Part shown: piece by piece, positions 1-25,115 of the stretch
Numbering within the stretch: position 1 is the stretch's first letter
How the letters are laid out: each line of letters opens with the position of its first letter
Origin: Chiloscyllium plagiosum
Taxonomy: Eukaryota
Assembly: GCF_004010195.1 (NCBI RefSeq)
Contig: NC_057742.1
Coordinates: 31,456,479-31,520,478, forward strand
DNA: 64,000 nucleotides
Direction of reading: 5' to 3'
The notes under the pieces: generated by a model
Seen by the model: the letters and a program-made list of their open reading frames with translations, nothing else
What the model was told of the DNA's origin: nothing
The model's database searches: none
Made by a program: the position numbers and the translations under genes

Positions 1-87
1 GGGCAAGGAGAGAAGAAGCTAGAGACTGCTACCAACAGCGGGAAGGAAGGAGCAAGAAGTCTAGATACAGCTTGCTATTCCAAAACT

Positions 88-400
88 CCACTGCTGACTC
101 TCAGCGCCAGGGACACAGGTTCAATTCCAGCCTCAGGTTACTGTCTGTGTGGAGTTTGCACATTCTCCCCGTGTCTGCCTACGTTTACTCAGGGTGCTCC
201 AGTTTCGTCCTACAGTCCAAAGATGTACAGGGTGGGTGGATTGGCCATACTAAATTGCTCAGTGTTCAGGGATGTGTAGGCTTGGTATATTGGTCAGGGG
301 AAGTGTAGAGTAGTAGGGGAGTGGATCTGGGTAGTATGCTCTTCAGAGGATCAGTGAGGACTTGTTGGGCCAAGTGGCCTGTTTCCACACTGCAGAGATT
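88..400 (+). mobile_element. tRNA-derived HE1/V-SINE-type SINE, 5' truncated
   Basis: cactgctg...ggttcaattcc B-box, V-domain-like ctgtgtggagtttgcacattctccccgtgtctgc, and 3' tail gggcctgtttccacactg. Confidence 0.8.
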
Positions 401-1797
401 CAGTGAACTAAGTCAGTATAGAGGTTTGGTGGGTGTAGGGAAACAGAGGCTGGGGGTGCTGTAAATTCAGTGAAGCCAATATGAAATACAAGAATGAATA
501 TTTTAAATTAACATCTCAGGGATGGATCAGCAAAGATGGAATGTTAGGTAAGCAACACTGCATTCATGTAATTAAATGTTGTACAAGTTGAAAGGCTATT
601 AAGTAACCGGAGTCAGTATGCTGCAAATCCTTCCCTGTCTCATCTACCCTGATACTCAAGAATTGAAAGGAATTCATGGACAGCTTTCTCTCAGAGACTG
701 AGATTACCCAGCCAGTTGCCACCATCTCTTCCCACCAGACTAACAGGTCAAACATTCTCTAACATTCTCACCTTGTTCTCATTGTGAACATCCCCTTCAG
801 CATCCCCAATTGCACAACCATTGGTGACTGCATATAGCTACAGAGATCCTAAATACAGGATTTCCGTCCTGATAAAAGGTCTGGAAAGCACTCAGAGTCT
901 ATGGGGAAGTAGATTCAATTGAAGCATTCAAAAGGGAATTAGACTGTTATCAGCATGTGCACAGTTATAGAGAGAAGGTGGGACAATGGCATTGTGAATT
1001 GCTCACATGGAAAGTTGGTGCAGGCATAATTGCCCAACTGTCTGCAGCATTTCCAAATCCTATGAAAACCTTTCCAATTACCCACTCCCTTTATGACAGT
1101 TCTTTAAATCATCTGATCATTTTTCATCACCTGTTCCAATATCTCTTGCGGCCTGGTGGAAAATTTTGCATGATAGCAGTCCAATGAAGCATCTTGAGAT
1201 GTTTTATTAAAGGTGCCATATAAATTCAAGTTGTAGGTGACAGGGAAATCAATTGCTGAGGTCACAAGATTAGGGGTAATGGTTTCAATTACAATGACAG
1301 TAAGGTAGGGTCAGAGTCAGTCATATTGCACAGGTAGAAGCAAGCAGGATGTGGGAATGATGTGGTATAATTTGGAGATCAGGTCTGTATCAGAGTGGCA
1401 TTTATCATCCTTCATGAATATGGAATGATAGTCAAATAGTAAGGGGTACTCGGTTTATGACGAAAATTTAGAAGTTTTGATCTTCTCTTTTTTAGTTGGA
1501 CAAAATACTGATGTGTGTCTTGAACAGCGAGTCAGGCAGCTTATCTGGAGGATCTAGTTCAAAATTAAATGGGACCGTTCAAGAATTCATCTTCCAAATC
1601 TAAACTAGGATTTAAACACAAATACCTATTGTAGCAGTTGAAAATTTTTCAATGGTACTCAGCTGCCAGATTGAACAGGACAGATCTGAGTAAATGTCAA
1701 ATGCAAGACTTTTTTCGCTGCGGAGTATAGTGCAGTTTGATGAAGTTCTTTCAAACGAGCCCTTATAAACAGGGAATTTACATAATTTTCCACTCAC

Positions 1798-2025
1798 CTG
1801 AGGTAAAGGGCAACAGTTCCAGCCGCCAGCGTTATTTTTGCAGCAACTGCTCCCTGATGGGCATATTGTACCATCATCACAGATCTCGTCCTTCATTTTT
1901 TCCATACTGTTTGTAAGCTTTAGGACCATGGGAATGGAAGAATCCTTCATCTCACACATTCCTTTCTGAACATCACATGTGTAGCCACTGGGACAACAGT
2001 GTATATGATCTTCACAGCAAACTGC
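1798..2025 (-). CDS. grn: Progranulin coding exon 11: C-half + linker + N-half (duplicate unit B, second exon); gene continues beyond the window
   Basis: taatag|[76 protein letters not shown]|gtgagt. 228 nt, phase 0-0. Confidence 0.95.
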
Positions 2026-2683
2026 CTATTAGTACAAAATAACAATATAAAATTAAGATGCAAGTTCAAACAAAAAATTCAACATCCATCTTAATCCTTC
2101 TGAGATTCCCCCGCACTTTTGAAGCCTGCAGGGTGGGCTGTGCATGCGTGTGTTTGCAACAGTTAAACTCTATCCAGTGTGAAACACAAATCCAACTGCA
2201 GTTCAGAATACCATCTGGAGGTTCACTCCTTCACCAATTTACACAATACTACCGAAAAAAATAGCAATCACCCGAAATATTCAACACACATGATGAATCA
2301 ATAATCATCTGATACTGTGAAGAGGCAGACTTGAAATGCAGTGAATGTTGTGATGAAATAAAACTTAAGTATCAGATCAATGTGGGGAGCATACTAGATA
2401 TTGTTAATCCATAATCGTCGGTATTTCAATTTTTCTTCCTGAAAATCCATTTCTCAGTAATACGATTTTCTGAGGAAGGCTACTAAATATACATTCAAAC
2501 TCCACTCTCATTCCAGTTTACACACAATTTGCCTCCCAGCTGGAAAAGAAAGTGCTGATAGCATTATTAAAAGAATGGAACTTCATTCACTGCTTTGAAT
2601 ATCTACCTCAAACAAAGATTCTACATATTGTCAATGATACGTTTTCTAGTGTTCAGGTCAAGATTTTTGTTATTAAAACCAAC

Positions 2684-2923
2684 CTGTGGAATGGGACAGC
2701 ATGCCCAACCTCCTGAAGTGCCCTTGCAGCATGTTTGATTGTCAGCACAGCTCTTGGTTTCATCACACTTGACATTCCTTATTGTACCCTGCACAATAGC
2801 TGGAGTCTTGGTCATCCAGGGAATAGAGATGCCCATCTTATAGCAATCTCCAGTATCAGGATTGCATTTGAAGCCCTTAGGACAACAATCTGGTCTTTGT
2901 ATGTGGTCTTTGCAGCAAACTTT
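2684..2923 (-). CDS. grn: Progranulin coding exon 10: atypical C-half + linker + N-half (duplicate unit B, first exon)
   Basis: aatcag|KVCCKDHIQRPDCCPKGFKCNPDTGDCYKMGISIPWMTKTPAIVQGTIRNVKCDETKSCADNQTCCKGTSGGWACCPIPQ|gttggt. 240 nt, phase 0-0, all 12 Cys retained. Confidence 0.85.
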
Positions 2924-3684
2924 CTGATTGGGAAAATAAACATGCAATAAATTAATCATAGCCCCAAATTTTCTCCTATTAAAATTGATTTTGGGATACA
3001 AACATAATTTAAAACTTTCTGACCTACAATTATGTCAACATTTGTATTTCAAATCATTGTTGGCAGAGTTGCACCTTAAATATTCTTTCATTGTTTACCT
3101 CTCCCGAAGCTGTAAGCAATGTTTTCTGTTTATTTACAGTAAGTCAATAGTGAAGTCTCTTGGTAATTGTTATCAGTTGCTGATTATTTAACCATTTAAC
3201 ATTTACCTTCAGTTCTTGAAAGCCAATGAATATATTTTACAGTTGAATTCAAGGCCTGTGACATGCTCTTGTATCCACAGTATTTATATGGCGAGTTCAG
3301 TTCATTTTCTGAACACTGGTAACCCCCCCGAATGTTGATAGGGGAAGATTTCGTGATAGCAATGCCACTGAATGTCAAGGGGCCATGGTTAGATTCTCTC
3401 TTCTCAGGGATGGTCATTTCCTGGCCCTTATGCGACTCTAGTGTTCTGAAGTGGGAAGGTGATTAACGTACAAGTTGAAGATGGTTGGACCTAGCACACT
3501 GTCGTGACAAAATCCCACAAAGACGGCCTGAAACAGGATGACTGACTCCAGTAAACTCAGTCATCTTACCTTGGGTGTGACTCTAACCAGCAGTTTTCTC
3601 TTCCTTGATTCTCACCCAATTCCCATTGACTCTAGTTTTGCCAAGGCTTCACAGTTAAATTCGGTTTCAATATGGTTGTGTGCA

Positions 3685-4937
3685 AGATAAATCGTGTCTC
3701 AAACTTGATTGAGATTTTTGAGCAAGTAATCAACATGATTGATGAGGGCAGAACAGTAGGTATTATTTACTTGGATTTTAGTAAAACCTTTGACAAGTCC
3801 CGCATGTTAGATTAATTAATAAAGTTAGATCACATGGAATTCAGGGTGAGCTTGCCAATTGGATACCAGATTGGCTTAATGGCAGCAGACAGAGTGTGAT
3901 GATGGAAGGTTGCTTTTTGGACTGCAGGCATATGACCGGTCGTGTTCCACAAGGATCGGTACTGGCTCCACTTTTGTTTCTCATTTATATAAGTGATTTA
4001 GATGAGAATATAGAAGCATGGTTCGTAAGTTTGCAGATGACATCAAAATTGGTGGTACAGTAGACAACGAAGGAGGTTATCTAAAGTTACAAAGAGATCT
4101 TGTTCACTTGGGTCAATGGGATGAAGAATAGTAGATGGAGTTTAATTTGGATAAATGCAAGGTATTGTATTTTGATAATTCGAACAAGGACAGGATTTAT
4201 ACAATTAAAAAGACAGTCTCGGTTAGTTTTGTAGAATAGAGACACTTAGGGGCTCAAGTACATAATTCTTTGAAATTTGTGTCTTGGGTAGACAAAGTGG
4301 TTAAGAAAGTGTTTAGCACGCTTGTCTTCATTGCTCAGACCTTCGAGTAAAAGGGTTGGGACATCATGTTAAGGTTGTACAGTACATTGATGAGGCCTAT
4401 TTTGGAGTAGTATGTTCAATTCTGGTCCTTCCATTATAGGAAGAATATCAAGTTACAGAGGGCTCAAAAAAGATCTACCAGGATGTTGCCAGGAATGGAG
4501 GGTTTGAATTATGAAGACAGCCTGGACAGATTGGGACTTTTTTCACTGGAGCGTATGAGATTGAGGGGTGACTTTATAGATGTTTATAAAATCATGAGGG
4601 GTACAGTTACAGTGAATTGCAGGTGCCTTCACCCTAATGTGGGGAATTTCAAGACTGGGGCATATTTTTAAGTTAAGAGGAGAACGATTAAAAAAATGAT
4701 ATGGGGCAATTATTTGATTTTAAACACAGATTGGTTCATGTGTGGAATAAACTTCCAGAAGAAGTGGTGAATGCAAGTACTGTTACAACATTTAAAAGAC
4801 ATTTAGATAAGGACCAGAATAAGGAATGTTTGGAGGGGTATAGGCTTAGCGCAAGAGGGTGGGACTAGTTTAGCCTAGGATTATGTTCTGCTTGATTGGA
4901 CCAATAGGTCAGTTTTAGTGTTGCAAGACTCTATGAT
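3685..4937 (+). mobile_element. CR1-clade LINE, 3' portion, degenerate
   Basis: Reverse-transcriptase remnants (YLDFSKTFDK, KFADDIK), C-terminal LGLFSLERMRLRGD motif and a gactctatga-type tail. Confidence 0.85.
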
Positions 4938-4984
4938 ACTATTATCAAGGGCAGTCACACGCCTCACCTCTGAAATTCAGTTCT

Positions 4985-5510
4985 ATTTCGGCTGTACACT
5001 TATCCTCACCCTTTCCCACATTACACTGTCAGGTTTTTGCCCACTCACTTAATTTGCCGATATTTTTCTGTTGATTCCTTGAGACATCCTCACCATTTGC
5101 TTTCCCACAATTTTGAGTGATCCGCAAACTTGGTAATAGCATACTCATTTCCCTCACCCATGTCATCAATATAGTTGTAAATAATTGTGGCCCCAACACT
5201 GACCTCCCGAAACACTCCACTAGATACAGCTTGCTATCCTGAAATTGCCTGTTTTAACCCAACACTATCTTCTGTTAATTAGTCAATCCTCTATCCATGA
5301 AAATCTACAACTCTCAATACCATGCAGTCATCCTATTAAGTAACTTTTACTTAATAGGATGAGTCATTACCCCAAATGCATTTTGGAAATTCAAATATAT
5401 TATATTGACTGGCTCCTTTTTATCTATACTGCTGTTAAGTCTCCAAAGAATTCTAATAAATTTGTCAGTCATCACTTCCCTTCATGAAGCCATAATGACG
5501 CTACCTAATT
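4985..5510 (-). mobile_element. CR1-clade LINE RT fragment
   Basis: Minus strand gives GSVLGPQLFT and KFADH-like reverse-transcriptase remnants. Confidence 0.65.
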
Positions 5511-6478
5511 TTGTATCTCAGAATGAGATTACCCAGCCAGTTGCCTCCACCAGTTTAACAGGTCTCTGACATTCGAATCCTGTTCTCAGTGTGAACATCC
5601 CCTTCAGTGTTCCCAATTTAATTGCACAACCATTGATGACTGCATTATGCTACAGAGACCCTAAATACAGGAATTCCCTCCTGATAAAGGTTTGGAAAGC
5701 ACTCAGAGTCTATGGTGAAGTAGGTTCAGTTGGGGTTCAAAAGGGAATTAGATTGACTTTGGAAAAGAAAGAATGTGCATGGTTATAGGGAGAAGGTGGG
5801 ACAATGGCATTGTGAATTACTCACATGGCAAGTTGTTGCAGCCATAATTAGCCAACTGTCTGCAGCATTTCTAAATCCTATGAAAACCTCTCCAATTACT
5901 CTCTTACTTTATGACAGTTCTTTAAATCACCTGATCATTTTTCGTCACCGGTCCCAATATCTCCTATGGCCTAGTGGAAACTTTTGCATCATAGCATTAC
6001 TGTGAAGCATGTGCCATATAGATTCAAGCTGTAGGTGGCAAGATTAGGGGTAATGATTTCAATTTCAATGGCAGTAAGGTAGGGTCAGAGTCAGTCATGT
6101 TATACAGGTAGAAGCAAGCAGGATGTGGGAGGGATGTGATAGGATTTGAAGATTGGTGCTGCATCAAAGTAACATGCTTCAGACTTCATGAATGATGGTC
6201 AAATGGTGAGGGGTACTTGGTTTATGACAAAAATTTAGAAGTTTTGATCTGCCTGTTTTTTAGTTTAAAATACAGTGTGTCTTGAACTAAGGCTTGAACA
6301 TTTGTACCTACTGTAGTAGGCAAAAGCTTTTCAATGGTACACAGCTGCCAGATCAAAAAGGACAGATCTGACTAAACGTCAAATGCAAGATTCCTCACTG
6401 TGGAGGATAGTGCGATTTGATGATGTCCTTTCAAATGATCTCTTATTAACAGGAAAATTGCACAAATGTTCCTCTAAC

Positions 6479-6570
6479 CTGAGGTAAAGAGCAACAGCTC
6501 CAGCTGCCAGTCTTATTTCTGCAGCAACTGCTCCATCACGTGCATTTTATACCATCATCACAAGTCTTAC
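6479..6570 (-). pseudogene. Degenerate N-half granulin remnant (intronised part of the former exon)
   Basis: Paralogous to 1798-1890 but 1 nt shorter. The ancestral frame reads [29 protein letters not shown] with TGA at 6536-6538. The old donor has decayed to CAG|gttaga. Confidence 0.85.
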
Positions 6571-6705
6571 CTTCATTTTTTCCATACTGCTTGTCAACTT
6601 CAGGACCATGGGAATGAAAGAATCCTTCGTCTTACATAAGCCTTTCTGAATGTCACATGTGTAGCCATTGGGACAACAGTGTGTATGATCTTCACAGCAA
6701 ACTGC
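6571..6705 (-). CDS. grn: Progranulin coding exon 9: C-half + linker only (shortened by a new donor)
   Basis: caatag|[45 protein letters not shown]|gtaaga. 135 nt, phase 0-0. Use of this donor is inferred from the consensus match and frame preservation. Confidence 0.72.
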
Positions 6706-6951
6706 CTATTGGTACAAAAGCAACAATATATTAAGTTGTATTTAATCACAGCATTCACTGCATTTCAAATCTGGCTCTTTCCAGCTTCCAGATGGTTTTT
6801 GATGCATCATGTGTGTGGATATTTTGGGTGATCTATCTTTTGGGGGTCGTATTATTGGAAAAGAAACATACCTCCAGCTGGTATTCTGAACTGCAGGTGG
6901 ATTTGTGTTACACAGTGGATAGTGTTTAACTGTTGGAAACATGCATGAACA

Positions 6952-9303
6952 CTGAATTGAATTGAATTGAATTTATTGTCACATATACCGAGGCACAATG
7001 AAAAGCTTTGTCTTGCAAGCAATACAGGCAGATCACAGAGTTAAATAGCATAGATAGTAAATCATAGGTAAACAGCAGGAAAAACAAAAACACAGATACA
7101 GGGACATGTTAAGAGTTTGAGAGTCCATTCAGTATTCTAACAACAGTAGGGTAGAAACTGTTGCGTAACCGGCTGGGGAGGCTGGGGAGAGAAGGCTTCT
7201 ATACCTTCTCTCTGATTGTACAGGTTGTAGAAAAACATTGCCAGGGTGGGATGGATCATTAAAAATGCTGGCAGCCTTTCCTTGACAGCGAGCCTGGTAG
7301 ATGGATTCTACACATGGGAGGTTGGCCTTTGTGACTGTCCGGGCCGAGCTCACTATTCTCTGTAACCATCTCCAATGTTGAATGGTGTAGTTGCCATACC
7401 AGGTAGTGATAAATCAAGACAGAATGCTCTCGATGGCGCACCTGTAAAAGTTGGCAAGGGTATTCACCGTCATGCCAAATTTCCTCAGCTGCCTGAGGAA
7501 GGGGAGATGTTGTTGGGCCTTTGTAACCAGTGCGTCCACATGAAGAGTCCAAGAAAGGTTGTTGTGGATGACCACTCTCAAGAGCTTGACATGCTTCACT
7601 CATTCCACCTCTGCTGTTAGTGTGTAGGGGGGTATGAGTAACATCCCACTGAAAGTCAATAACGAGTTCCTTGGTTTTTGCTGGCATTGAGAGCTAGAGC
7701 ACCATTTTTCCAGGTCTTCCACCTCCCATCTGTAGTCTGTTTCGTCGCCGTCTGAGAGTTCACCAACTATGGTGGTGTCATCAGCTAACTTGTAAATGGA
7801 ATTGCAGTCATGGGTATACACTGTGTACAGTAGGGGGCTGAGTGCGCATGCCGGGGGCTCCTGTGTAAGTGAATGAAATATTGTCCCCATTCTTCACTGA
7901 TTGTGGTCTGTGGGTCAGGAAACTGAGGATCCAGTTGCAGAGAGTGGGGTTTAGTCCAACATCACTAAGTTTAGTAATCAGTCTCAAGGGGGTAATAGTG
8001 TTAAAGGTTAAACTGTAGTCAATGAGTAGGATTCTTATGCAGCTATTCTTGGTGTCAAGATGTTCGAGGGAGGAGTGAAGGGCAAATGATATGGATCTGT
8101 TATTCCGATACGCAAATTGGAGTGGTCAAGAATCGTGGGGAGGCTTGAGCTGATTAATGCTATGACCAGCCTTTCAAAGCACTTCATGACCACCGAGGTG
8201 AGGGTCACTGGGCGGTAGTCATTGAGACATGCTGCATGAGCCGCCTTAGGCACAGGGATGATGTTGGCCCTTTTGAAGCAGGCAGGGACAGGGGACTGCT
8301 GCAGCGAGAGGTTGAAGATGTCCCAGAACACCTCTGCCAGTTGATCTGCGCATGCTCTGAGTGCGCAGCGTGGTACTCCATCTGGTCCCATCACTTTCCC
8401 TGAATTCACACGAAGGAAAACTGATCTGACCTCTGATGTTGGGACAGGTTCGTCAGGACTTGTCAGAATAGGTGTTACCTCTCTGCCGAAATTCTGCTCA
8501 AAGCGAGCATAGAAGGCTTTGAGGTGTTGTCATCGCCTGCTATCTTGCACTGTCTCTTTTTAGAACCTGTGATGTCATTCAGTCCTTGCCATAATCGCTG
8601 GGTGTCTGTCTGGATCTCTAGTTTGGATCAGTATTGATCCTGGGCTGTCTTAATGGCTCTGCAAAGGTCATACTTAGATTTCTTATATTTGAGTGGGTCT
8701 CCTGATCTGAAGGCCTCACGCCTGGTTTTTAGCAGGTTCTCTATGTCCTGATTCATCCAGGGTTTCCTGCTGGGGTACATCCGCATTGATTTCCTCGGTA
8801 TGCAGTCCTCCACACATTTGCTGTTAAAGTCTGTGACAATGTCGTCCATAGGTAACTGTTTGAAAATGTCCCAATCTGCCGATTCCAGACAGCACTGGAG
8901 TTGATCCTCTGCCTCCTCCAACCAGCACTGGACCTCTATCCGCGAGGGAGCCTCCTGGCTAGAGTTTTTGCCTGTAAGCCGGGAGAAGCATGGCATTATG
9001 GTTGGAGTTCCCAAAATGAGGGCAGGGGATGGAGCGGTACACATCCTTCCCAGTGGTGTAACAGTGGTCTAAAATGTTCGTGCCCCTGGTGGAGCAGGTA
9101 ATGTTCTGGTGGTACTCCGGCAACACCTTCCTTAGGTTGGCTTGATTAAAGTCGCCAGTTACAATAAACAGGGCCTCAGGGTGTTCAGTCTCCAGGGTGT
9201 TAGTAGTGGAATACAGCACATCCAGAGCTTCCTCAACCTTTGCTTGTGGCGATATGTACACAGCAGTGGTACATTCCAGTGGTAGATAGAAGGGGGCGAC
9301 AGT
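6952..9303 (-). mobile_element. Rex1/Babar-like LINE, 5' truncated
   Basis: Endonuclease remnant (ALFIVTGDFNQANL), RT remnant (GPDGVP...LNDYRPVTLTSVVMKCFERLV), (AATTC)n 3' tail, and TSD TGAACA at 6946-6951 and 9304-9309. Confidence 0.88.
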
Positions 9304-9617
9304 TGAACATTCCGCTTTGCAGGCATTAAAAAGTACAGGGGGAGGAAACTAGATATCCTTAGCATTCCTGATATTCCACTTTTCAGTAATAAGGTTTATT
9401 GGGCAACGTTACTGAATGTACACTCTTAACTCCACTTCCCCTCCAGCTTACACAAAAATCTTTTTCAAATGAAAGCCAAATTAAGGTGCTGATACTATTA
9501 TTGTAACAATAGATCTTCACTCTCAGCTTTGAAAATGTACCTCTCACAAAGATTCTGCATATTATCATAGATACGGTTTCAAGTGTTCTGGTCAAGATTT
9601 TTGTTCTGAAAACCAAC

Positions 9618-9845
9618 CTGTGGAATGGGGCAGCACGCCCAATCTCCTGAAAGGCCCTCGCAGCATGTTTGATTGTCAGGACAGCTCTTGGTTTCATCAC
9701 ACTTGACATCCCTCACTGTAACTTGCACAATAGCTGGAGTCTTGGTCATCCAGGGGATAGAGATGCCCCTCTGGTAGCAGTGTCCTTCCGAATCACATTC
9801 GAAGCCATGAGGACAACAATGTACGTGGTCTTCGCAGCAAACTGC
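9618..9845 (-). CDS. grn: Progranulin coding exon 8: C-half + linker + N-half (duplicate unit A, first exon)
   Basis: cattag|AVCCEDHVHCCPHGFECDSEGHCYQRGISIPWMTKTPAIVQVTVRDVKCDETKSCPDNQTCCEGLSGDWACCPIPQ|gttggt. 228 nt, phase 0-0. Confidence 0.95.
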
Positions 9846-10758
9846 CTAATGGGGAAAAAAGAACACGCGATAAATTAATCACAATCCCAAATTTTTTCCT
9901 GTAAAAGTTGCTTTTGGGGTACAAACATCATTTTAAACTTTCTGACCTACAATTATGTCAACATTTGTATTTCAAGTCATTATTGGCAGAGTTGCACCGT
10001 AACTATTCTTTCAGTGCTTACCTCTCCCGAAGCCGCAAATAATGGCATACCAAGACTCTCACCAAGCAGACCTAAAAATAAGGCGTTATCCTGTTGAAAT
10101 TGCAACACAGCCAGGACAATTTGCATGCCAAGCAGCATAAACAGCATTTGACAGAGCTAATCAATCCACAACCCACCAATCCCATATCAGATCCAAGCCT
10201 GTAGTTCTGCCACATGCAGTCACTAAAGTGGTGGACAATTTAACAAATAACAGGAGGATATTTTATAAATATCCCAATCCTCAAAGATGGGACAGGCCAG
10301 CAAAGGAGCTTACAAGACAATCTTGCAATATTTGAAGCACCTTCAGCCAGAGGTGCTGACTAGATGATCCTTCATGGCCTCTTCCATAAATTCCAAACAT
10401 CATAGATACCAAGCTTAAGCCAATGTTCATATGATGTCAAAAAATGACTGAAGACTTGATACTGCAACATACTGTCAATAGAATTGAAGACTTGTGCTCC
10501 AGAACTAGCCACACCCCTAGTCAAGTTGCTCCAGTAGTGTTGCACATTGGCATTTACTAGCAACGTGGAAAATTGCACAGGTACATCCTGTCCATAAAAA
10601 GGAGGGCAAATTCAACCCAGCACAATCAAACAGTCTACTCTCATTTATTAGCCAAGTGGTAGAATATGTCATCAATAGTTTCAACAAGTATCATTTACTC
10701 AATTACCTCCACAATGACACTTAGTTTGGGTTCTACCAGGGCCACTCGGTTCCTGACT

Positions 10759-12111
10759 CACCCTTAACAATTTCTCCATCGAATCCTCCACTTCCTCCAG
10801 ATGAAAGGGGTAGCCATGGGCTCCAGCTAAGCCTGTCTCTTTGTTGGCTACTTAGAATAGTCCATCTTCCATAATTACGCCAGCACCACTCCCCACCTCT
10901 TCCTCCGCTGCATTGATGACTGCATCGGCACCACCTCGTGCTCCCGCGAGGAGGTTGAGGAGTTCATCAACTTCACTAACACATTCCACCCAGACTTTAA
11001 ATTCACTGGATCATCTCTGACACCTCCCTCCCCTTCCTGGACCTCTCCATCTCCATCAATGACGACCGACTTAACACTGACATTTTTTAGAAATCCACCG
11101 ACTCCCACAGCTACCTGGATTACACCTCATCAGACCCTACCTCCTGCAAAAATGCTATCCCGTATTCCCAATTCCTCCGCCTCTGCTGTATCTGCTCCCA
11201 GGAGGACCAGTTCCACCACAGAACATACCAGATGGCCTTTTTCTTTAAAGACTGTAATTTCCCTTCCCATGTGGTTGAAGATGCCCTCCAAAGCATCTCA
11301 TCCACGCCATTCACCTCTGCCCTCAAACCCCACCTCTCCAACCGCAACAAGGACAGAACCCCTCCTGGTCCTCACCTTCCACCCTGCTAATCTCCCCATA
11401 AACTGCGCCATGCGCCGACATTTCTGCCACCTCCAAACGGACCCCACCACGAGGGATATATTTCCCTCCCCACCCCTTTCTGCCTTCTGCAAAGGCCATT
11501 CCCTCAGTGACTACCTGGTCAGGTCAATGCCCAACAACCGACCCTCCCCTCCTAGCATCTTCCCCTGCCACCACAGAAATTGCAAAACCTGCGCCCACAC
11601 CTCACCCCCAGTCTCCATCCAAGGCCCCAAAGGAGCCTTCCACATCCATACTTTCACCTGCGCATCCATCAATGGTCATTTGTTGTATTTGTTGCTCCCG
11701 ATGTGGTCTCCTTGACATTGGGGAGACTGGACGCCTTCTCACAGATCACTTTAGGGAAATCTCCGGGTCACCTGTACCAATCAATCCTACCGCCCCGTGG
11801 TTGAATATTTCAACTCCACCTCCCACTCTGCTGAGGACATGCAGGTCCTGGGCCTCCTCCACCCAATGCCTGGAGGAAGAACGCTTCATTTTCTGCCTTG
11901 GAACACTTCAGCCCCAGGGCATCAATGTGGACTTCCACCTGTTTCCTCATTCACCCTCTCCCCACCTTACCCCAGTTCCAACATTTATCTCTCCAGCCCA
12001 GAGGCTCACTGCCTCATTCCTGATGAAGGGCTTTTGCCTGAAATGTCGATTTTCCTGCTCCACGGATGCTGCCTGACTTCCTGTGCTTCTCCAGCACCAC
12101 TCTAATCTAGA
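10759..12111 (+). mobile_element. Penelope-like element (RT + GIY-YIG remnants, 3' terminal repeat)
   Basis: KGVAMG...LFLRCIDDC RT motif, CSRCGLLDIGETGR GIY-YIG-like motif, and TSD TCCTGACT at 10751-10758 and 12112-12119. Confidence 0.88.
12016..12051 (+). ncRNA. Minimal hammerhead-ribozyme-like motif in Penelope 3' end (slightly degenerate)
   Basis: CTGATGA-a-GGGC-tttt-GCCT-GAAA-t-GTC. Confidence 0.5.
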
Positions 12112-12382
12112 TCCTGACTATCATAGCCTTGGTACAAGAAACTGGAACTCATGAGGGGAAGAGAGGCAGCATTTCTGATAGCGTGGCTTCAAAGAAGCTC
12201 TGATCAAACACAGCATCAGGAAAAACATTCGCCCTGGTTGGAGTCAGATGGTAAGGAAGGTGGTTATGATTGCTGAGGGAAAATCATCTTAACCCCAGAA
12301 ATTCACTGCAAGAGTTCCTCAGCCGTTGCATCACCCTCCCTCCATCAAAAGGTCAGGAGTGGGGATCTTCGTTAATAATTAC

Positions 12383-12993
12383 TGTTGTGGTTAAATTACC
12401 ACAAGCTATCTTTAATTCAGCTACTTTTTAAGAAACCTCACAATCAAGTACTGAAACAATTGCTTGGAACTTTATTGTGCCTATCAACCAAATAAGACCC
12501 CAAAGTAACCAAGTCAAGTCTCACAATCCAACTAGGCTATTACCCATGATTCCAATCAACAGTGTCTGTTTCTAGATGTGTCCTGGAGTTGAATTTTTCT
12601 GTTCTTCAAGTTTGTGGTTTGACATTATTAATGATCCTTTAGATTCTTTCGTCCAAAACATTGACTACTCCTCTGGAGCTATCAAATCTGCAACATGCCT
12701 CCTGGTCAGAAATAGCTTCCCTGTTCCTTGTTACATTTGGCATCAACTGCCTTTTCAAAGGCACAGCTTTCCTGTTATTAACTCTTGAGATCATGCTATA
12801 CAGCAGGCATTTATCAGGAAGTGTTAGAAGTTGTTTACATAGCTTTGACTTCTTCTCCCAGGCATGGCGAATTTCTTTCAATTCTGGAATAACAGTTTGT
12901 CCTGGACTCTTAACAGTTTATCCCAGAATGAGTTATTGTTGTTTCTTTCAATTCATGACCAGTTATCAACTTTCTGAAGTTTACACCATCACA
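12383..12993. mobile_element. Probable solo LTR
   Basis: TG...CA termini with imperfect terminal inverted repeats and a 4-bp TSD TTAC (12379-12382, 12994-12997). It interrupts a LINE that resumes collinearly. Confidence 0.6.
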
Positions 12994-13544
12994 TTACCAC
13001 AAAGTTCAGGACTATTTTCAACTTCTAAGATACTGAAGCAGTCTGTGTCAAAATACAGTAAGACCTGGAGAACATTCCAGCTTGGGATGGTGAGTGGCAA
13101 GTAACATTTGCACCACAAAAAATGCCATGCAATAACCATCTCCAATAAGCAAGAGTCTAACTATTGGCCTTTGACATTCAGCACACACAATACTCTGGGT
13201 GGGTCTCATCAAGGTCCTGCATAATTGCAGCAAGATATTTCTGTTCCTGTCTTTGAATCATTTTGCTATGAAGACCTTTTTCACCAACTGCTGTACTGCA
13301 TGCTCACTTTGTGACTGGTGATCAAGAACACCTTCCATTTTCTCAAAACATCTCCATTAAGAGAATAATGTGCCTTCCTATTTCTCCCTCCAAAGTCAAC
13401 AATCTTACATTTAGCCATATCATACTAAACATTTGTGTACCAAAAGTTAGTGATAAATTCAATGCTTTAAAAGTTGTCAAAACTTGAGCAAATAATACCG
13501 AAGTAAGTACGAACTATCACTCGAAGAAACAAATACCAGGGGAG

Positions 13545-15050
13545 CTAATGGAGCTAAAGGCCAATGAGTCCCCTGGACTTAATGAGATAAGAGATGCATT
13601 GGTAGTAATTTTCCAAAAATCCTTAGATTCAGAATAAGTCCCAGAGGATTGGAAAACTGTCATTGGAACACCTTTATTTAAAAAGGAAAGAAAGACAAAA
13701 AAAAGAGACTGCAGGCCAGTTAATTTAATATCAATCATTGGGAAAATGTTATAAATGAGTTGATTATAAAGGATATAATAACAGAGCTTTTAGATAGCCA
13801 TAACAATCAAGCAGAGCAAGGATGGCTCCATGAAAGGAAATCATGCCTGACGTATTTATTAAAGCCTCTGAGGAGGTAACAAGCAGGGTAGATAGAGGTT
13901 AACCATTATATGGAATATATTCGAATTTCCAAGTAGCATTCTACGGAGTATGACACAAAAGGTTACTTCAGATAAAAGCCCATGGCTTGGGGTAATTTAT
14001 TAGCATGGTTAGAGGATGGGCTAACAAATAGAAAACAGAGTTGGGATAAAGAGGAAACTTTCAGGATGGCAACCTGCAACTATGGAGTGCCAAAGGAATC
14101 CGTGCAGGGCCCACAATCGTACAAGATATATTAATGATTTGGAAGACGGAAGTAAATGTACTAACATCACGTTTGTGGATGACACAAAATTAAGTGGAAA
14201 GACAAGTAATGAGGATGCCATGGGAGTATAAAGAGGGGTATAGACAGACTTTGTAGATCGAATACAATATGAGAAAGAGTGAGGTTATGCACTTTGGCAG
14301 GAATTGAAAAGCGGAATGTCACTTGAATGGAGAAAGACTGCAGAAAGCTGTGGTACAGCTGTGGTACAGTGGAATTTGGGCATCCTAGTGCATGAATCAT
14401 AAAAAGCTGTTGTTTCAAGTTCTATACATCATAAGGAAGGCAAATGGAAATCGGCCTTTTTCTCATAGAGAACAAGAATAGGAAGGTTAGTTAAAACTGT
14501 ACAAGCATGAGTCATAACACATTTGGAATACTGTTGACAATTTTGGTCCTAATATCTAAGGAAATTCATATTGCTGTTGGAGCAGGATGACCCCAACTTC
14601 GAGATTTTTATAAGAGTAGAGATTTGGCAGATTAAGCTTGCGTTCATTACAGTCTAGAAGAATAAGAAGGCTCCTTATTTTAAAAAAATAATTAGGCTTT
14701 TGAGGAATTTGAAAGGGTAGATGCTCAGAAGTTGTTTACCCTGTGGGAGAATTCGGTCCAGAGAGCATAACCCTTGAATGAGGAGTGACTCATTTGAGAG
14801 AGAGATAAGAAGAAACTTTTTCTTAGGATGATGAATCGGTGGAATTCTTTCCCCACAGAGGGCTGTTAAGTCTGGGTTGCTATGTATATTCAAGCTGAGA
14901 TAGAATAGTTTTTAATCATTCAGGAAATAAAGGGTTATGGGGTTAAGGCAGCAAAGTGGAGTTGAGAATCATCAGATCATCCACGATTTCATTGAGTGGT
15001 GGAGTAGATGCAATGGGCCATAGCCGATTTAGGCTCCTACGTCTTATGGT
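13545..15050 (+). mobile_element. CR1-clade LINE, degenerate RT to 3' end
   Basis: VPEDWK...CRPVNL and FVDDTKL remnants, with a tcttatggt tail. Confidence 0.75.
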
Positions 15051-16131
15051 TTATTGGATAAAGCAGCCTGCTTGATTTGCAGCCCGTCCATCAACTTCAA
15101 TATTTAACCCCCACCACCAACTCAGAAGCAGTAGTATGCACCACTTATAAGAAAGATACACTGTCAAAACTCACCAAAGCCTCTTCAATTGCATTTTCCT
15201 CCACCATCTAGAAGGACAAGGGTACATGGATAGGAAAGATTTAGAGAGATACAGGCCAAGTGCAGCTAAATGGGACTAGTTCGTTTCAGGTCAGCATGGA
15301 CAGGTTGGGCCTGAAGGCCTATTTCCATGCTGTATGACTCCACGACAGAAACACAGGAATAACATTGCCAAACCTTCACTATTCCAGGTCTAAAATGTAG
15401 AACTGCTTTAGCAGGACAGGGTTCTATCTACACCATGTGAACCATAGGAGTTCAATGCAGCACTCAGCACCATCTTCGCAAAGACAATTAGGGTCACAAT
15501 AAATGCTGGCTAAGCCAGCAGATTCTGTGAATGGTAAAGAAAACACAGTAAAATGCATTTCACTTGGTGTCTATGGTAAACTCAAGACTAAGACCAAAAT
15601 ATGTGGAGTCAAGAGATAAGAAACAGAATAAAGAGCCAGCTGGCCACAAAACAGTGTATAAGGGTTAAATAAAACTATTTATTGAATGTAGTAAGTGGTC
15701 AAAAGTGACAGTTACTTAGAAAATTCTTACAGAGCACAACATGGTAGCTCACAGATATTTCTCTGGCTGGTTAAATCAAAGAACAAAATCCAGGATTGCT
15801 GTTAAGCCACTTAAGACTGACATGCGGAGGAAATACATCAGAGTGTGATGTTTTGGAATTCTCGATCCAGAGGGCCAAAGAAACTTGATCACTTTGCATG
15901 TTCAAAACAGAAATCCTTAGATTTTTTGAGGCAATAACGTCAATGGATAGGAGGATATGGGGGAGGTGATACAGTTAAATTACAAGGAGGTAAATGATCG
16001 GCCATGATCGAATTGAAAGGCTGAGCAACCACAATGGCCTACTCCTGTTTCCATGCTCCACAATAATAGCTGCTGAAACCACTGTTAATTACCATCTACA
16101 GGAAACAGTTTGGATTCATCATTTTTTTTAA

Positions 16132-16435
16132 TTACATTACAGTGTGGAAACAGGCCCTTTGGCCCAACAAGTCCACACCGACCTGCCGAAGCGCAACCCA
16201 CCCATACCCCTACATTTACCCCTTACCTAACACTACGGACAATTTAGCATGGCCAATTCACCTGACCTGCACATCTTTGGACTGTGGGAGGAAACCGGAG
16301 CACCCAGAGGAAACCCACGCAGACACGGGGAGAATGTGCAAACTCCACACAGTCAGTCACCTGAGGCGGGAATTGAACCCGGGTCTCAGGCGCTGTGAGG
16401 CAGCAGTGCTAACCACTGTGCCACCATGCCGCCCA
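16132..16435 (-). mobile_element. HE1/V-SINE-type SINE, near full length
   Basis: Reverse complement begins gggcggcatggtggcacagtggttagcactgctgcc (A-box), then B-box gggttcaattccc and the conserved tail. Confidence 0.9.
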
Positions 16436-17440
16436 CCAATGGGGACAATGAATTGGGGAGGTCAGTACAGTTAACACAGGGAGGACTGCAATAACAGACA
16501 GTCTTGATAAGCTTGCAGAAAGGACGTGTCATTAGTAAACTAATACCCACAATAACTACATTAATGAAATGCGAAGTGGTGCATTTTGGGCAGAAAAAAA
16601 GCCACATGGACTGAAAAGTGGCAGGTAACATTTACATCATACGAATATCAGGCAATAACCAACTCCAACAAAAGTATAAAAAAAAGTCTCCCCTACCACT
16701 GCCATGCAGGATATCACCGTTGACCACAAACCCAGCCCATCTAGGGTATAAAAGGAGATCAGAGGCCTGCTTTTTTGCAGCATATAACTCAACACCTAAC
16801 TCGCTAAAGCCTACCTATCAAATGAAATGTGCAAGTCATGGTGTGATTCTTTCTACTGGTCTGGATGAGTGCAGTTCTAACACTCACAGGGAAGGCCATT
16901 CATTCCCTTGAGCCTGTTCCTCCATTCAAGGAGATCCTAATCCATACACTTGCCTTTGGCCCATATTTCTTAATACCTTTGCTTAACAAAAAAAATTCTC
17001 TCCTATTCAAAGTTACAACTGACCAAGCACCACCTGTCATTTATGGAAGAGTGTTCCAAACATCTACCATTCTTTACGTATAGAAGTGCTTTCCAACATC
17101 TCTCCTGAATAGTCTAACCCAAATTCTCAGATGATGCCCCCTAGTTCTAGAATCTCCACCCAGCGGAAATAGTTTATATACACTGCCCATTCCTAAAGAC
17201 TACAACAAATCATTCTTTAACTTTGTAAATTCTAGAGAAAACAGGTCCAATTTGTATAATCTCTCCTCACAGCATAATACCTGAAGCCAGGTATCATTCT
17301 TGAAAACCTATGTTGTACTCCCTCCAAGAACAATATATTCTTCGTAAGATGTGGTGCCTAAGAATGGGTCTGGGTGGGTTGCGCTTCGGCGGGTCAGTGT
17401 GGACTTGTTGGGCCGAAGGGCCTGTTTCCACACTGTAAGT

Positions 17441-17490
17441 AATCTAATCTAATCTAATCTAATCTAATCTAATCTAATCTAATCTAATCT
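17441..17490 (+). repeat. (AATCT)10 microsatellite expanded from a SINE 3' tail (SINE fragment 17362-17440)
   Basis: Perfect pentamer array directly after gggcctgtttccacactgtaagt. Confidence 0.95.
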
Positions 17491-17662
17491 AAATCTGCTC
17501 TCAGTACTGCAAGTGGGGTCTAACCAGGGTTTTGTATAACAACAGCAGACTTTCGGTATCATTATGCTCCAGTCCTCTATATATCAAGGCCAGCAGTAGC
17601 TTTCTTGATTATTTTATGCACCTGTTCATGGCATTTTAAAGACGCACATACCTGAACCACCA

Positions 17663-17880
17663 GGCAGAAGTGGGTAGTGCAGATGCTGGAAATTAGAGTG
17701 GTGCTAGAAAAGCACAGCAAATCAGGCAGCATCCGAGAAGCAGGAAAATTGACGTTTTGGGCAAAAGCCCTTCATCAGGAATGGCTCCCGATGAAGGGCT
17801 TTTGCCTGAAACGTCAATTTTCCAGCTCCTCAGATGCTGTCTAATCTGCAGTGCTTTTCCAGCACCACTCTAATCTTGTG
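17663..17880. mobile_element. Penelope-derived fold-back (inverted repeat) element
   Basis: Two inverted copies of the terminal sequence seen at 12016-12110, with TSD CCTGAACCACCA at 17651-17662 and 17881-17892. Confidence 0.85.
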
Positions 17881-19152
17881 CCTGAACCACCAACCTTTTT
17901 TTGGCTATCCATTGCATTTAAGTTCATACCATCCGGAAAGAACCCTGATCTCTCCTTTCTCAGTCCAAAATGCTTACTTTGAACTCAATCTGCCACAGTT
18001 TAGCCCATTCACTTAAATTATCAATTACAAATTGTAATTTTTACATTACCATCTACAGTGTCTACAATACCACGTAACTTTTTGCCATTCAATTTGGATA
18101 TATGACTTTCTGTGCAAGTCATTTTATTCAAAATGTTAATAAATAATTGAGACCCTCACAGATCCTTATTGGCTACATTCTGCCAATTTGAGTATCTACC
18201 CATTATTCCTACTTTCTGTTGCCTGCAACTCAACCAATTTCCCAGCTGTATCAATAATATACCCTAAGTTCCCTGGGCTTTTATTTTAGTTAACATCTTC
18301 GGCGGGACTTGAACGAATGACTTCTTGGGAAGTCCATATAAACAAAATCCATAGATATCCCCTGCCCACCACCACTTCAAAAAATTCAGAATGGTTTGTC
18401 AGGCATCATCTATGTTACAATATGGAGACAGACAGCTGAACCAAATCTGCCTTTCTACTTCTATATTTGCAATGCAGTTAAATTAAAACCTTCTAAAGCA
18501 CTCAAAATTGACCCGCAAGGTTCCTAACCAGAATAACCCATCTCAGATTCTGCAAATAATCAATCCCTGCCACCCATTACATTTTAAACAAAAACTAGCA
18601 ATTTATTAACAATATGTTAACTTTGGCAGATCAAAATTAAACAAAAGTAACCAAAATGTTCATCATTTAAACCCAATAGCCTTTATTTTCAGCACTATTC
18701 ACAAAAAATAGATAAAAAAAGTGTCATGGAATAAGTAAAAAAAAAAATACAAAACTAGCCAGATTACCTAAGTGGTTTTCAAGATGCATTGTTCCACAGG
18801 CATAAAAGATTTTTTTTGTGGTTGATTTTTCTGATGTTGATTAGGGTCCCCTTTATAGTTTTCTCAGATGGAGGCTACAATACTTATAACTTTATTTTCT
18901 ATTCTCTGAGCTTCCAAAAGCTGTTCATGGGAGGTTAATCAGGAAGCTTTCAAATCTTCATGCTGCAGAATCAACAGCCAGAATCTTTATTCCTGAAAGA
19001 ACTGCCCAAAACCCAGTTCAAACTCTAGCCACTCCCTGACAGATTGTCTGTCTACTCCACAAGTCCCTGTTACCATTCATTATCTCCATCTGCTTCAGCA
19101 CAAAGTCTTTTCCACACTTGCTGGAACCAATTCCCACGTACGAGTTTCATTA

Positions 19153-19560
19153 CAGGTACAAGATGCTTTATCCGAACATCCAAAAACTGAAAAGCTCAGA
19201 AATCTGAAGGTTTTTTTGTGAAGTTGTTTTCTCATTAACAAGATTGTTTGGCATGCTAACAGTTTACCCAAGTCGATACCCACTTGATGTGTGTCATACA
19301 GATGCAACATGGGGGGCATGGCCAAGCACTGACAGGTCTGGGGTTTCTCAGTGAACACCCCCAAGTCAACACCCACTTGATGCATGTCACGGAGATGCGA
19401 TGGGGGTGCGTGGCCAAGCACTTTCTTACTTAGAAGTCTACTTCTCCGGTAAGATTTTTAAAACTTTCACCATTAAACGGCTACATTCTGAAAACCAAAA
19501 AATCCCAAACTCCCAAAAACAGCTGGTCCCGAGCATTTCAGATAAAGGATCTTATACCTG
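19153..19560. mobile_element. Tc1/mariner-pogo-type MITE
   Basis: 24-bp terminal inverted repeats CAGGTACAAGATGCTTTATCCGAA / TTCAGATAAAGGATCTTATACCTG (3 mismatches), flanked by TA on both sides. Confidence 0.88.
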
Positions 19561-20297
19561 TAGTAGCCAACTTTTGCTATCTGCTTGAGCATAAGGCCCT
19601 TCCACGGTGACAAAGCATCTGCAGAATCTTTTCATCAGGAACTAACCTGTAATCAACTTTCAGGCCTGGCTTCACAAATAAACAAAAGTTTGTTTAGTCT
19701 GCTTTCTTTTTAACACAAGCTGTTACCCACAGTCCTAAGTCATTTTTAGCTCACAGTTCCAAACCAAAATTGATAAAAAAGAAAAAGAAAAATGATGAAA
19801 AATCAGCAAGGGCTCTCACCTGTCATGAGTCCATGCTTGCTCACCCTGATTAACTGAAAATCTGAACTGTTTAGTTACCACATGTTTACAGACTCCAATA
19901 ATTCCCCTCCACGTATGCTAGGCTAACTGGTCTGTCATATCTCAGCTTTCCTCTTATACCCATTTTAAACATTCACTGTTTCGTTACTGGCAATTGTAGT
20001 CGCAGAGTGTGCTATTAACGAGGTGTACTTCAAAACAACTTGCCAAAGTTTCAACCTTTTCATAATCTGCAACCTTAAATGACAAGGAAAATAGATGCAA
20101 GGGAAGATTAGCTTTCAAAAACTAGCAAGTAAGGATCTTTGAAGTACATGCCTTCTATTCAAAACAACATTTAAACTCAGTGTCAGGAAAAGATAAAATA
20201 TTTGAATACCACTGAGTTGTAGCAGTACTGTCGTGGCCCTCGGAGAAAGATTGAAGCATGCCATTGTATTTCAAATGTACAGATAATTGAGTCTTAC

Positions 20298-20395
20298 CTT
20301 TGGTGCAGGACAGCATCCAAATTCTCCTGAAGGAAGCTTACAGCAAGTATTATTATCAGGGCAGAACACTGTTTCGTTGCACCACACATATTGAA
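20298..20395 (-). CDS. grn: Progranulin coding exon 7: N-half module
   Basis: ttttgtag|(V)[32 protein letters not shown]|gtaaga. 98 nt, phase 1-0. N-glycosylation sequons NET and NNT. Confidence 0.95.
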
Positions 20396-21772
20396 CTACA
20401 AAAGCAAATAAGATAATTAATTAATGGAAGACAAAATCTAATGGTGTCACATGGTGGAGCATAGGAACAAGAGAAAGAGAAATAAGTGGACATTATACAC
20501 AACATACATGGGAACAAAACGAAAATCAGTAATTTCAACAATAATTTTTCCTTCAACGGTGCTCTGAAAGCAATCGACTATTTTATTCATTTGCGCGACC
20601 AATTTGTTTTTGTGGACTGACCAATTGAGCCTCATCTGATTGAAATATCTAGCCCTAGTTCCATGTTCAACTTAAATCAAAGGAGCAGGAATAGGCTATT
20701 TGGCCCTTCAAACCTGCTCCACCATTTAACATGATCATGGCTGATCATCCAACTCATACCTCATTCCTACTTTCTCCCCCACACCCTTTGATCCCTTCAG
20801 CCCCAAGAACGATACCTAATTTCTAACTGAAGACATTCAATGCTTTGGTTTCAATTGCTTTCTGTGACAGAAAGTTCCAGAGGCTCACTACTCTCTGGAT
20901 GAAGAAATTTCACTCCACCTCAGTCCAAAATAGCCTACCCATAACCTTAAACTGTGAATCTTAGTTCTGAAAACTCTATCGGGTAAATCATTTATAGACT
21001 GCTAGGAGCTCTAAAGTGGATAACCTCACAATTACCCACATTATACATCATCTTCCATAGATTTGCCCATGTACTTAACTTGCCCAAAACTTTTGAGCAT
21101 CTCTGCATGCTGCTCACAGCTCATCCACCCACCCTCCCAGCTTTGTGTCTCCTGTAAACTTGGAGATTTACATTTAGTTCCCTAAACTAAATCATTAACG
21201 TATATTGTGAATAGCTGGGATCCAAGCAGTGATCCCTACAGTAGCCCACTAATGCTAACTTTAGATGGCAGAGGACGTTTAGTTGTGAAAGGATAGATTG
21301 ATGTTATGGCAGATTTCTTTCAAATGTTGAAAAAGTTAAATTTTGTCCACAGGGTAGAAAATTTGATCAAGAGAAGAGAAAAGAATTATAGTGGTTAGTA
21401 TAAACAACAACAAAAAAAAGTCAGGTTAAATGTTGAGAACTGCTTTTCCATTTTCAAACTGAAACACAGAATCAAGTGTAGGCCATTCAGTCTCTCAAGC
21501 CTGTTACATTATTTGATGAGAGCAAGGCAGCTCTGCAGTGTGAACTCCTTTACCTCCACGGGGTCCATAATAATAGGTCACAGTTAGGGCAGTAAAATAT
21601 AACACGGCACTTTGCACCAATGTTTTCACACCAAATTTGACACTTTGTCATGTACAGGAGTTATTAAATGAATAATGGCTTAGTTAATGAGGTATGAATT
21701 AAGGACATTGCAGAGACAAAGATTTAGAGCGGAAGTTTCAGAGATCAGAGTTTCAACAATCATAAAGTGATT

Positions 21773-22038
21773 AAAACCAGGGTCACGAGAAAGGCCAGAA
21801 TTGGTGTAGCGCAGACAAAGCTTGTAGACCTGTGGAAAACTACAAAGAGGGTCATGAGGGAAGTTACAAAAACAAGTGGAAGTAGTTTAAAATGGAGTAA
21901 TCAAAAACCAGGGTCACGAGAAAGGCCAGAATTGGTGTAGCGCAGACAAAGCTTGTAGACCTGTGGAAAACTACAAAGAAAGAGGGTCATGAGGGGAGTT
22001 ACAAAAACAAGTGGAAGTAGTTTAAAATGGAGTAATCA
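21773..22038 (+). repeat. Recent two-copy tandem duplication (131 + 135 bp)
   Basis: aaaaccagggtcacgagaaagg...ggagtaatca is repeated. The copies differ by a 4-bp indel and one substitution. Confidence 0.95.
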
Positions 22039-23757: not shown

Positions 23758-24066
23758 GTGGGTGGCACGGTGGTTAGCACTGCTGCCTCACAGCGCCAGA
23801 ATCCCGGGTTCAATTCCCGCCTCAGGCAACTGTCTGTGTGGAGTTTGCACATTCTCCCCGTGTCTGTGTGGGTTTCCTCCGGGTGCTCCGGTTTCCTCCC
23901 ACAGTCCAAAAAATGTGCAGGTTAGGTAAATTGGTCATGCTAAATTGTTCGTAGTGTTAGGTGAAGGGGTGAATGTAGGGGAATGGGTCTGGGTGAGTTG
24001 CTCTTCGGAGGGTCGGTGTGGAGTTGTTGGGCCGAAGGGCCTGTTTCCACACTGTAAGTAATCTAA
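23758..24066 (+). mobile_element. HE1/V-SINE-type SINE
   Basis: gggtggcacggtggttagcactgctgcctcacagcgcc...gggcctgtttccacactgtaagtaatcta. Confidence 0.92.
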
Positions 24067-24822
24067 TTAAACATCATCAGCTCTTTGGATAGTGTTTCAG
24101 CTCTCCATTACATTGTGTGTGAAGTGCTAATTCTGATATCACCCTGGAAAAGCCTTTGTCTAACTATAACTTTATACTCTTCGCTTAGGACTCCCTCACC
24201 ACAGGAAATGCCCATAGTTTATTTCTCTCAAGATGTCAGCACATATGGTGAATAACAATTCACTGGAAGCATTCAGAGGAAATTGGCCAAGTTAAGCCTA
24301 TCAAGCTAGGAAAGGAAATGGATTACAATAAAAACTAAGCACTGAAGAAACTTAGATCTGGCAGCATCTCTGGAGAGAGAAACAATTAACATTTTAAGTC
24401 CCATGCACATTTTTTCATATACACATTTCTCTTGACCTGCTACCAAATGTCAACTGGTAGTTTCTTTCACTACAAACTCAAAAAAAATGCATAGACCAGC
24501 TGATCCATTGGTCTTCTGCTGCCCTTGGAAAATAGTTAACATAACTATCTTATCTCCACAGACAATCCAATAATGCTCAGGATGCCATCATAACTGGACC
24601 CTCTAACTTCATTTTAATATCTGGATTGATTTTGAGCTACAAGGGAAAAAGGCACCTTTCATACTGAATAGATGGATTATCCTTGTCTTAGCTCAATATG
24701 GCTTCAATTACTGAAGTGACACAAGCATATTAAAGGTACAAAAACAATGATCAGCAGAAAAGAAGATATTTAAATGATCATCCTAAGAATTTATTTTCCA
24801 TTGTGAACAATATTATGAGAAA

Positions 24823-25115
24823 TTAGATTAGATTAGATTACTTACAGTGTGGAAACAGGCCCTTCGGCCCAACAAGTCCATACCAACCCTCCGAAGAGCA
24901 ACCCCTCCAGACCCATTCCCCTACATTTACCCCTTCACCTAACACTATGGGCAATTTAGCATAGCCAATTCACCTAACCTGCACATTTTTTGGACTGTGG
25001 GAGGAAACCCATGCAGACACGGGGAGAACGTGCAAACTCCATACAGACAGTTGCCGGAGGTGTTAATTGAACCCAGGCCTCTGGTGCAGTGAGGGAGCAT
25101 TGCTAACCACTGTGG
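24823..25115 (-). mobile_element. HE1/V-SINE-type SINE
   Basis: Reverse complement of the same family, with a (TAGAT)n tail at 24823-24840. Confidence 0.9.

Follow-up and report, generated by a model that had tools for sequence, protein, structure and literature searches.

One exon of the progranulin gene of the bamboo shark Chiloscyllium plagiosum is a single base shorter than its duplicate in the same gene, and the missing base shifts the reading frame in the middle of the exon. The locus thus raises the question of how a gene can carry such a frameshift and remain open. The initial annotation of this DNA proposed that the deletion had itself created the in-frame splice donor that rescued the gene. 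We examined the proposal in a stretch of 64,000 nucleotides (hereafter the window, to which all coordinates refer), with the help of sequencing runs, protein models from related sharks and the literature on granulins. The account that we consider probable is that the duplicated exon uses a new, in-frame donor in its middle, which was likely switched on by a one-base deletion that lies inside it, probably soon after the duplication and in the ancestor of the bamboo and epaulette sharks.

A long-form progranulin gene with a duplicated exon pair

The minus strand of the window holds the progranulin gene of C. plagiosum. Exon B′ (2025-1798) is a 100% match to a RefSeq protein of this species, and mapping of an 870-residue isoform, P0128, resulted in 15 coding exons, all with GT-AG ends, in the exon pattern sn-n-cn-c-n-c-n-cn-c-cn-cn-cn-cn-cn-c. 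The isoform matched the Pfam family PF00396 with 462 bits in 10 stretches, and its N-terminus, encoded by exon 49168-49031, is hydrophobic and was judged by eye to be a putative signal peptide. The gene thus has tandem PF00396 modules, exons of the N, C and CN types and a putative signal peptide, as is typical of a long-form progranulin. The first full granulin module contains 10 cysteines, as described for GrnA.

In intron 1 (36506-49030), the bamboo, epaulette and zebra shark proteins are without a C-only second exon that is present in the white, basking, saw and sevengill sharks. Its absence leaves a paragranulin-like N-half and represents a second, older half-module loss in the progranulin gene; no remnant of the white shark second exon was found between exons 1 and 2 by tblastn. 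A second granulin locus (G000:C5:23240312-23242985) contains at least two C+N-like exons and is perhaps a short-form or GrnC-type gene.

Two C+N exons, A and B, have been duplicated in tandem with their introns into A′ and B′, and the blocks of the two copies are 77-84% identical in a self-BLAST. Tandem duplication of C+N exons is a recurrent feature of progranulins (PMC4527844). The duplicated region consists of the following features:

1..49168, minus strand: part of the progranulin gene in the window, with 11 of the 15 coding exons; the other 4 lie up to 22.5 kb past window base 1
5520..10044, minus strand: first copy of the A-B unit (self-BLAST, 77-84% identity to 695-3121)
9618..9845, minus strand: exon A, an intact C+N exon, the N-half of which forms a full module with the C-half of exon B (mapping; 3 raw reads of run X21 run B into A)
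6571..6705, minus strand: exon B as spliced now, a 6-Cys C-half plus linker, 135 nt, phase 0-0 (mapping, runs; PF00396, E 2e-9)
695..3121, minus strand: second copy of the A-B unit (self-BLAST)
2684..2923, minus strand: exon A′, the duplicate of A, with an unpaired C-half and a 9-nt insertion (mapping, alignment)
1798..2025, minus strand: exon B′, the intact duplicate of B (alignment, mapping)

Pairwise divergence between the duplicate copies of the introns was 0.13 (753 sites) and 0.19 (173 sites). A 1.8-kb repeat (6952-8727) interrupts the first copy of the unit between A and B and is absent between A′ and B′; it is 83% identical to 54746-56575 in the opposite orientation.

A one-base deletion and a decayed N-half in exon B

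Counted from 6705 to its old donor at 6479, exon B measures 227 nt, as compared to 228 nt for B′, and the single exon gap in the alignment is located at 6570/6569. As the initial annotation had described, AAG/GTAAGA (the slash marking the exon end) is a strong donor after base 6571. It coincides with a codon boundary and ends the exon after 135 nt, or 45 codons, in phase 0, which is also the phase in which the next exon (2923-2684) begins. Three features can be distinguished at this end of the exon:

6563..6573, minus strand: new donor AAG/GTAAGACT, with the 1-base deletion at its +2 to +4 (alignment, donor scores, joint 2923-6571 with GT..AG ends)
6479..6570, minus strand: dead N-half, now intron, 92 nt, with 9 amino-acid changes on the B branch (alignment; no contig depth in 4 of 4 runs)
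6471..6481, minus strand: old donor CAG/GTTAGA, unused in the runs examined (runs, donor scores)

The claims made for the damage downstream of the new donor held in part. The C-half of exon B retains its 6 cysteines and the His motif, CCP has become CCS in the dead N-half, and the old donor reads CAG/GTTAGA, all as claimed. The donor was attributed to a single-base change; there is one deletion, but the donor also needs two substitutions relative to the paralogue (GAC GAG versus G-T AAG). The TGA exists at 6538-6536, but in the ancestral frame of the N-half, and read-through from the exon start stops at a TAA at 6549-6547. Donor strength was expressed as the energy of the duplex with U1, which is a rough score. 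On this scale, the old donor (-7.1 kcal/mol) is indeed weaker than that of the paralogue (-13.3 kcal/mol). It is nevertheless stronger than 4 of the gene's 13 other working donors, so the old donor has been outcompeted rather than destroyed.

All 6 cysteine codons of the dead N-half can still be read. We considered whether these signify that the half is still coding and rejected the idea, because a stop codon and 9 changes mark it as not coding. Substitutions on the B branch were polarised by hand with proteins from the zebra, whale, white and basking sharks. Amino-acid-changing substitutions affected 9 of 73 sites in the dead half, whereas in the live half there were 4 among 111 sites (Fisher p 0.037); inclusion of the allele that the assembly carries at position 6651 raises the latter count to 5 (p 0.085). 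In comparison with B′, pN/pS was 0.45 for the live half and 1.55 for the dead half. Relaxed constraint thus appears to begin at the new donor, on a contrast between the live and dead halves that is marginally significant only. At 0.12, the rate of change in the dead half equals or exceeds half the divergence of the duplicated introns, which suggests that the N-half was released at or soon after the duplication. Substitutions are also clustered at the donor itself, with 4 of the first 8 aligned sites changed versus 12 of the 84 others (p about 0.02-0.03).

The deletion and the new junction in sequencing runs

The stretch 6250-6940 is covered by a single DNA contig, X1, which has 0 gaps and 1 substitution and may be the source of the assembly. 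Low-depth contigs from two other samples (X3 and X7) show no difference over the dead half and fully bridge the TGA; they pass the deletion site by 22 and 30 letters, which is below our 31-letter rule. No indels were listed in any of the four runs X1, X3, X7 and X21. An assembly error was rejected as the source of the deletion on account of the gapless contig X1 and an identical junction in two other species. At position 6651 in exon B, all 8 runs carry another base than the assembly (Val instead of Ile); the allele of the assembly is either rare or an error.

The junction from 6571 to 2923 was present in 7 of 7 transcript-like runs, six of which were taken as RNA by guess or from their behaviour, while X21 alone is on record as RNA (about 2% of it was read). 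In a first set of four runs, three contain a contig, at depths of 127, 4 and 412, in which 2923 is joined to 6571 across 3,647 bases bounded by GT..AG. In the fourth run, a loose end of 12 letters continues into exon A′. In all four, the depth of the bin that holds the dead half was fully accounted for by contigs of the live part. Contigs from X3 and X7 stop at 6571 with loose letters from exon A′, and the contig depth of the live exon versus the dead half was about 1,400x in X3 and 4,100x in X7. Among 18 raw RNA reads of X21 that were aligned to the region, 7 run from 6571 into A′, 3 run from the start of exon B into A, and none falls on 6250-6561.

At the old donor, 6479, neither a joint nor a loose end was found in 8 runs, among the joints listed, and no skip of exon B was found among the 15 joints listed, with 47 others outside the listing. 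Contigs lose rare forms, and exon B may be skipped, or the old donor used, at a low level. The contig that joins B to A′ is at least as deep as the one that carries B′ (127 versus 82, and 412 versus 283), which fits mostly constitutive inclusion of exon B. Part of the interpretation in the initial annotation is thereby borne out: a C+N exon has become C-only with its frame kept, the new donor is the one used in transcripts, and the module architecture of progranulin has changed.

At 6576-6581, a run of six A in exon B, 8 raw X21 reads and contigs from X3 and X7 end in poly-T. This is most likely due to internal oligo-dT priming rather than to a poly(A) site.

Distribution of the truncated exon in sharks

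A comparison with related sharks had been suggested as a check. The junction from the linker of B to the C-half of A′ occurs in 9 of 9 proteins of the hemiscylliid cluster, which are RefSeq models from C. plagiosum, C. punctatum and Hemiscyllium ocellatum. In the zebra and whale shark models there is only one A-B pair, the N-half of which is intact and starts with DEIC, and the white and basking shark models likewise have one pair and an intact N-half; the single pair in these outgroups is known from protein models. The junction is thus common to three hemiscylliids while the outgroups keep the N-half at the protein level, which places both the duplication and the truncation on the hemiscylliid side of the split from the zebra and whale sharks. 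The truncated exon looks fixed in the Hemiscylliidae, and the outgroups and the paralogue both point, at the protein level, to the new donor as the derived state. By the end of the Cretaceous, most carpet shark families had already separated (PMC8529718). In the linker of exon B, 0 of 19 columns vary across the three species.

Searches with the junction region, by a method that needs shared exact words, returned only the hemiscylliid cluster (1 candidate), from a sample without nurse sharks and wobbegongs, and no shorter protein. In the whale shark model P0089, the N-half orthologous to the dead half has lost two cysteines (C2 to Tyr and C5 to Gly); this module may be relaxed as well, or the model may contain errors.

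Origin of the new donor

The ancestral residues at the site are Asp-Glu-Ile. On every short mutational path that we scored, the site made a poor donor as long as the base was present (-3.4 to -5.8 kcal/mol). Once the base had been lost, the score reached -9.5 to -9.6 kcal/mol with T at position +2 and about -5 with C. Since the donor is strong only after the deletion on all of these paths, the deletion was very probably the donor-making step. The proposal that the deletion created the donor stands to the extent that it was likely the decisive step, but by itself it is enough only on a GAT background. Removal of the same base from the present-day paralogue, which reads GAC, yields a GC donor only, and of the 228 possible single-base deletions of this paralogue, none gives a strong GT donor in phase 0. 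If a silent C-to-T change at a CpG comes first, 1 of 228 does, and this is the observed deletion. The cluster of substitutions at the donor argues against a pure one-step account, as the changes there go beyond a single deletion. The deletion is thus very likely the step that made the donor, though it needed a primed background or passed via a GC donor.

The sequence of events that we favour would have started from an Asp codon that was, or had silently become, GAT, so that the loss of its A gave AAG/GTGAG at once; a GC donor that was later turned into GT would be a less likely route. A later G-to-A change would have converted GTGAG into GTAAG. The frameshift would have fallen inside the new intron, so that the gene remained open with the loss of a spare N-half. 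This half would then have drifted, and the C-half of the next exon, A′, would have lost its partner and acquired a 3-residue insertion.

The order of events could also have been the reverse, with an A-to-T change that made a weak GT in the intact exon, which came into use, and a deletion that improved the donor later, in what was already part intron. Such an order avoids a frameshifted intermediate, and the gap can be placed at +2, +3 or +4 with equal numbers of substitutions relative to the paralogue. We nevertheless consider it unlikely, since the GT site before the deletion would have scored -5.7 to -5.8 kcal/mol against -13.3 kcal/mol for the competing donor as seen in the paralogue, and would hardly have been used. 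It would also require a transversion and a missense change, as against CpG transitions on the favoured path, and the deletion is still the step that makes the donor strong. Very unlikely, in our opinion, is a templated patch, by which the first 8 bases of the new intron were copied at once from the donor of intron 7 and replaced 9 exon bases. The 11-mer at the new donor is identical to that at the donor of exon 7 (20300-20290), there is no third copy on either strand of the 64-kb window, and a patch would explain the deletion and the clustered substitutions together. However, 8 of the 11 bases simply follow the donor consensus and a ninth is ancestral, which leaves only about two to be explained, the match stops at once on both sides, the template is 13.7 kb off, and selection for a stronger donor could explain part of the cluster.

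Least probable of all, and hardly credible, is that there was no rescue because exon B, once duplicated, was already being skipped or had become optional, decayed without constraint and was later brought back by a chance donor. It is true that skipping of a C+N exon keeps the frame (phase 0-0), that transcripts with hybrid modules are known (PMC4527844, S3 Text), and that the live and dead halves differ with marginal significance only. Free decay is at odds with a live half that has neither stop nor indel, keeps its 6 cysteines and His motif and is followed by a linker invariant in three species, with the pN/pS values against B′ (0.45 for the live half, 1.55 for the dead half), and with an intact acceptor and high inclusion.

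We therefore retain the probable account of a deletion that switched on the donor. Although such a deletion is rare per mutation, no other kind of frameshift in a constitutive exon leaves a working gene, and survivorship would account for our seeing so lucky an event.

The orphan C-half of exon A′

In the protein, the N-half of exon A and the C-half of exon B remain a pair, and the order is N-C, then an unpaired C-half from A′ (at about 2923-2840; residues 441-468 of P0128), then N-C. The initial annotation had noted neither this consequence nor the age of the event, its occurrence in three species and the fact that it struck a newly duplicated, spare module. No cysteine lies between positions 420 and 442 of P0128, so there is no 6-Cys N-half directly before the C-half of A′. 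The 9-nt insertion in this half resembles the bases just before it, removes the His that precedes the second double cysteine and lengthens the loop from 5 to 8 residues. Across the 139 proteins fetched, the loop measures 5 residues in 1,588 of 1,649 C-halves, and a loop of 8 occurs only in 9 hemiscylliid records; in N-halves, a loop of 8 is usual (1,539 of 1,642). The C-half of A′ accordingly lacks both the partner N-half and the CC-x5-CC loop ending in His of a canonical 12-Cys module. It corresponds to the unpaired C-half termed “q” (PMC4527844), with six C-terminal cysteines and no paired N-half in the transcript.

The bonds of a normal granulin module are C1-C3, C2-C5, C4-C7, C6-C9, C8-C11 and C10-C12 (PMC4527844, S2 Text). 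C7 and C9 of the orphan half are therefore without their native partners, C4 and C6. The orphan most likely persists as a half-module that the protein tolerates, and in which C8-C11 and C10-C12, two of the three native disulfides, can still form. Isolated N-halves fold via C4-C6, while the isolated C-half of a fluke granulin is a mixture without regular structure, yet active (PMC13348780). With the insertion, C7 and C9 of the orphan half are ten residues apart, which equals the spacing of C4 and C6. The insertion may represent compensation, or decay of a relaxed half. In the former case, the N-half-like loop of 8 residues would let the hemiscylliids make a self-folding, C-terminal counterpart of paragranulin, an idea that we consider rather doubtful.

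The three species agree at all 19 non-Cys positions of the orphan C-half, but this falls short of significance (p 0.14), and the same invariance is seen in 5 other C-halves. In an AlphaFold2 model of the full protein (mean pLDDT 54 overall), the orphan half had pLDDT values mostly below 50 (432-458, 460-463, 465-490), in disagreement with a model of the exon alone, in which it had values of 73-79; neither provides a disulfide pairing. A fold search against 334 chains gave no match at Z 2 or more and was uninformative.

Discussion

Exonic donor gain, rescue of frameshifts by splicing and unpaired C-halves are all already known, and the case described here involves no new mechanism. The exon boundary is also already in the RefSeq gene models. 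We found no publication on granulin in Chiloscyllium or on this progranulin locus in the literature covered, most subscription journals being outside it. The closest study, by Palfree et al. (2015; PMC4527844), describes long-form vertebrate progranulins with tandem C+N repeats and includes the elephant shark; there is no true shark among its 48 progranulins, and the word “frameshift” does not occur in the main text and supplements searched. In that work, CN exons are discussed as products of intron loss, whereas in the bamboo shark a CN exon has been cut back to C by the gain of a donor. The elephant shark gene C_mil1 (exon string sn-c-c-n-...) has a C-half directly after a C-half, the “q” supported by one EST, as in the bamboo shark, and we saw the same arrangement in P0014 and P0095. 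The loop of the elephant shark half still has 5 residues and its His, while that of the bamboo shark half is 8 residues long and has no His. The two unpaired halves also differ in position and are of independent origin, and in the bamboo shark the lost N-half can still be read in the intron.

New donors within exons that shorten them in frame have been catalogued in humans, for example in NUB1 and SMOX (PMC3538075), and shifts of splice sites are routine in comparative annotation (TOGA2 preprint, 10.64898/2026.06.30.735536). Like the human cases of splice-site shift and partial intronization (PMC3538075), that of the shark consists of a new GT in what is exon in the homologue, used in transcripts and removing coding sequence in frame. 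The human cases are alternative isoforms beside the ancestral form; in the shark, by contrast, the new form is dominant and present in three species, and the donor mutation is itself a frameshift. A one-base indel combined with a splicing change that restores the frame is also seen in CHM c.1335dup (PMC7667377), which is, however, a hypomorphic disease allele in one patient, whereas the shark event, apparently fixed in its lineage, has cost no more than a spare half-module.

Loss of a single copy of progranulin is harmful in humans (PMC4527844, introduction). The hemiscylliid gene illustrates one route by which a half-module is lost from progranulin, and why such a loss may be tolerated. It also implies that frameshifts called at the level of exons can, in duplicated exons, be false gene losses. 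The orphan C-half with a loop of N-half length offers a test of why granulin C-halves fail to fold alone. With the intact twin, the lost half, the old donor, the deletion and the new donor all within 5 kb, and the outcome visible in RNA, the locus is a clean fossil record of a step in exon evolution.
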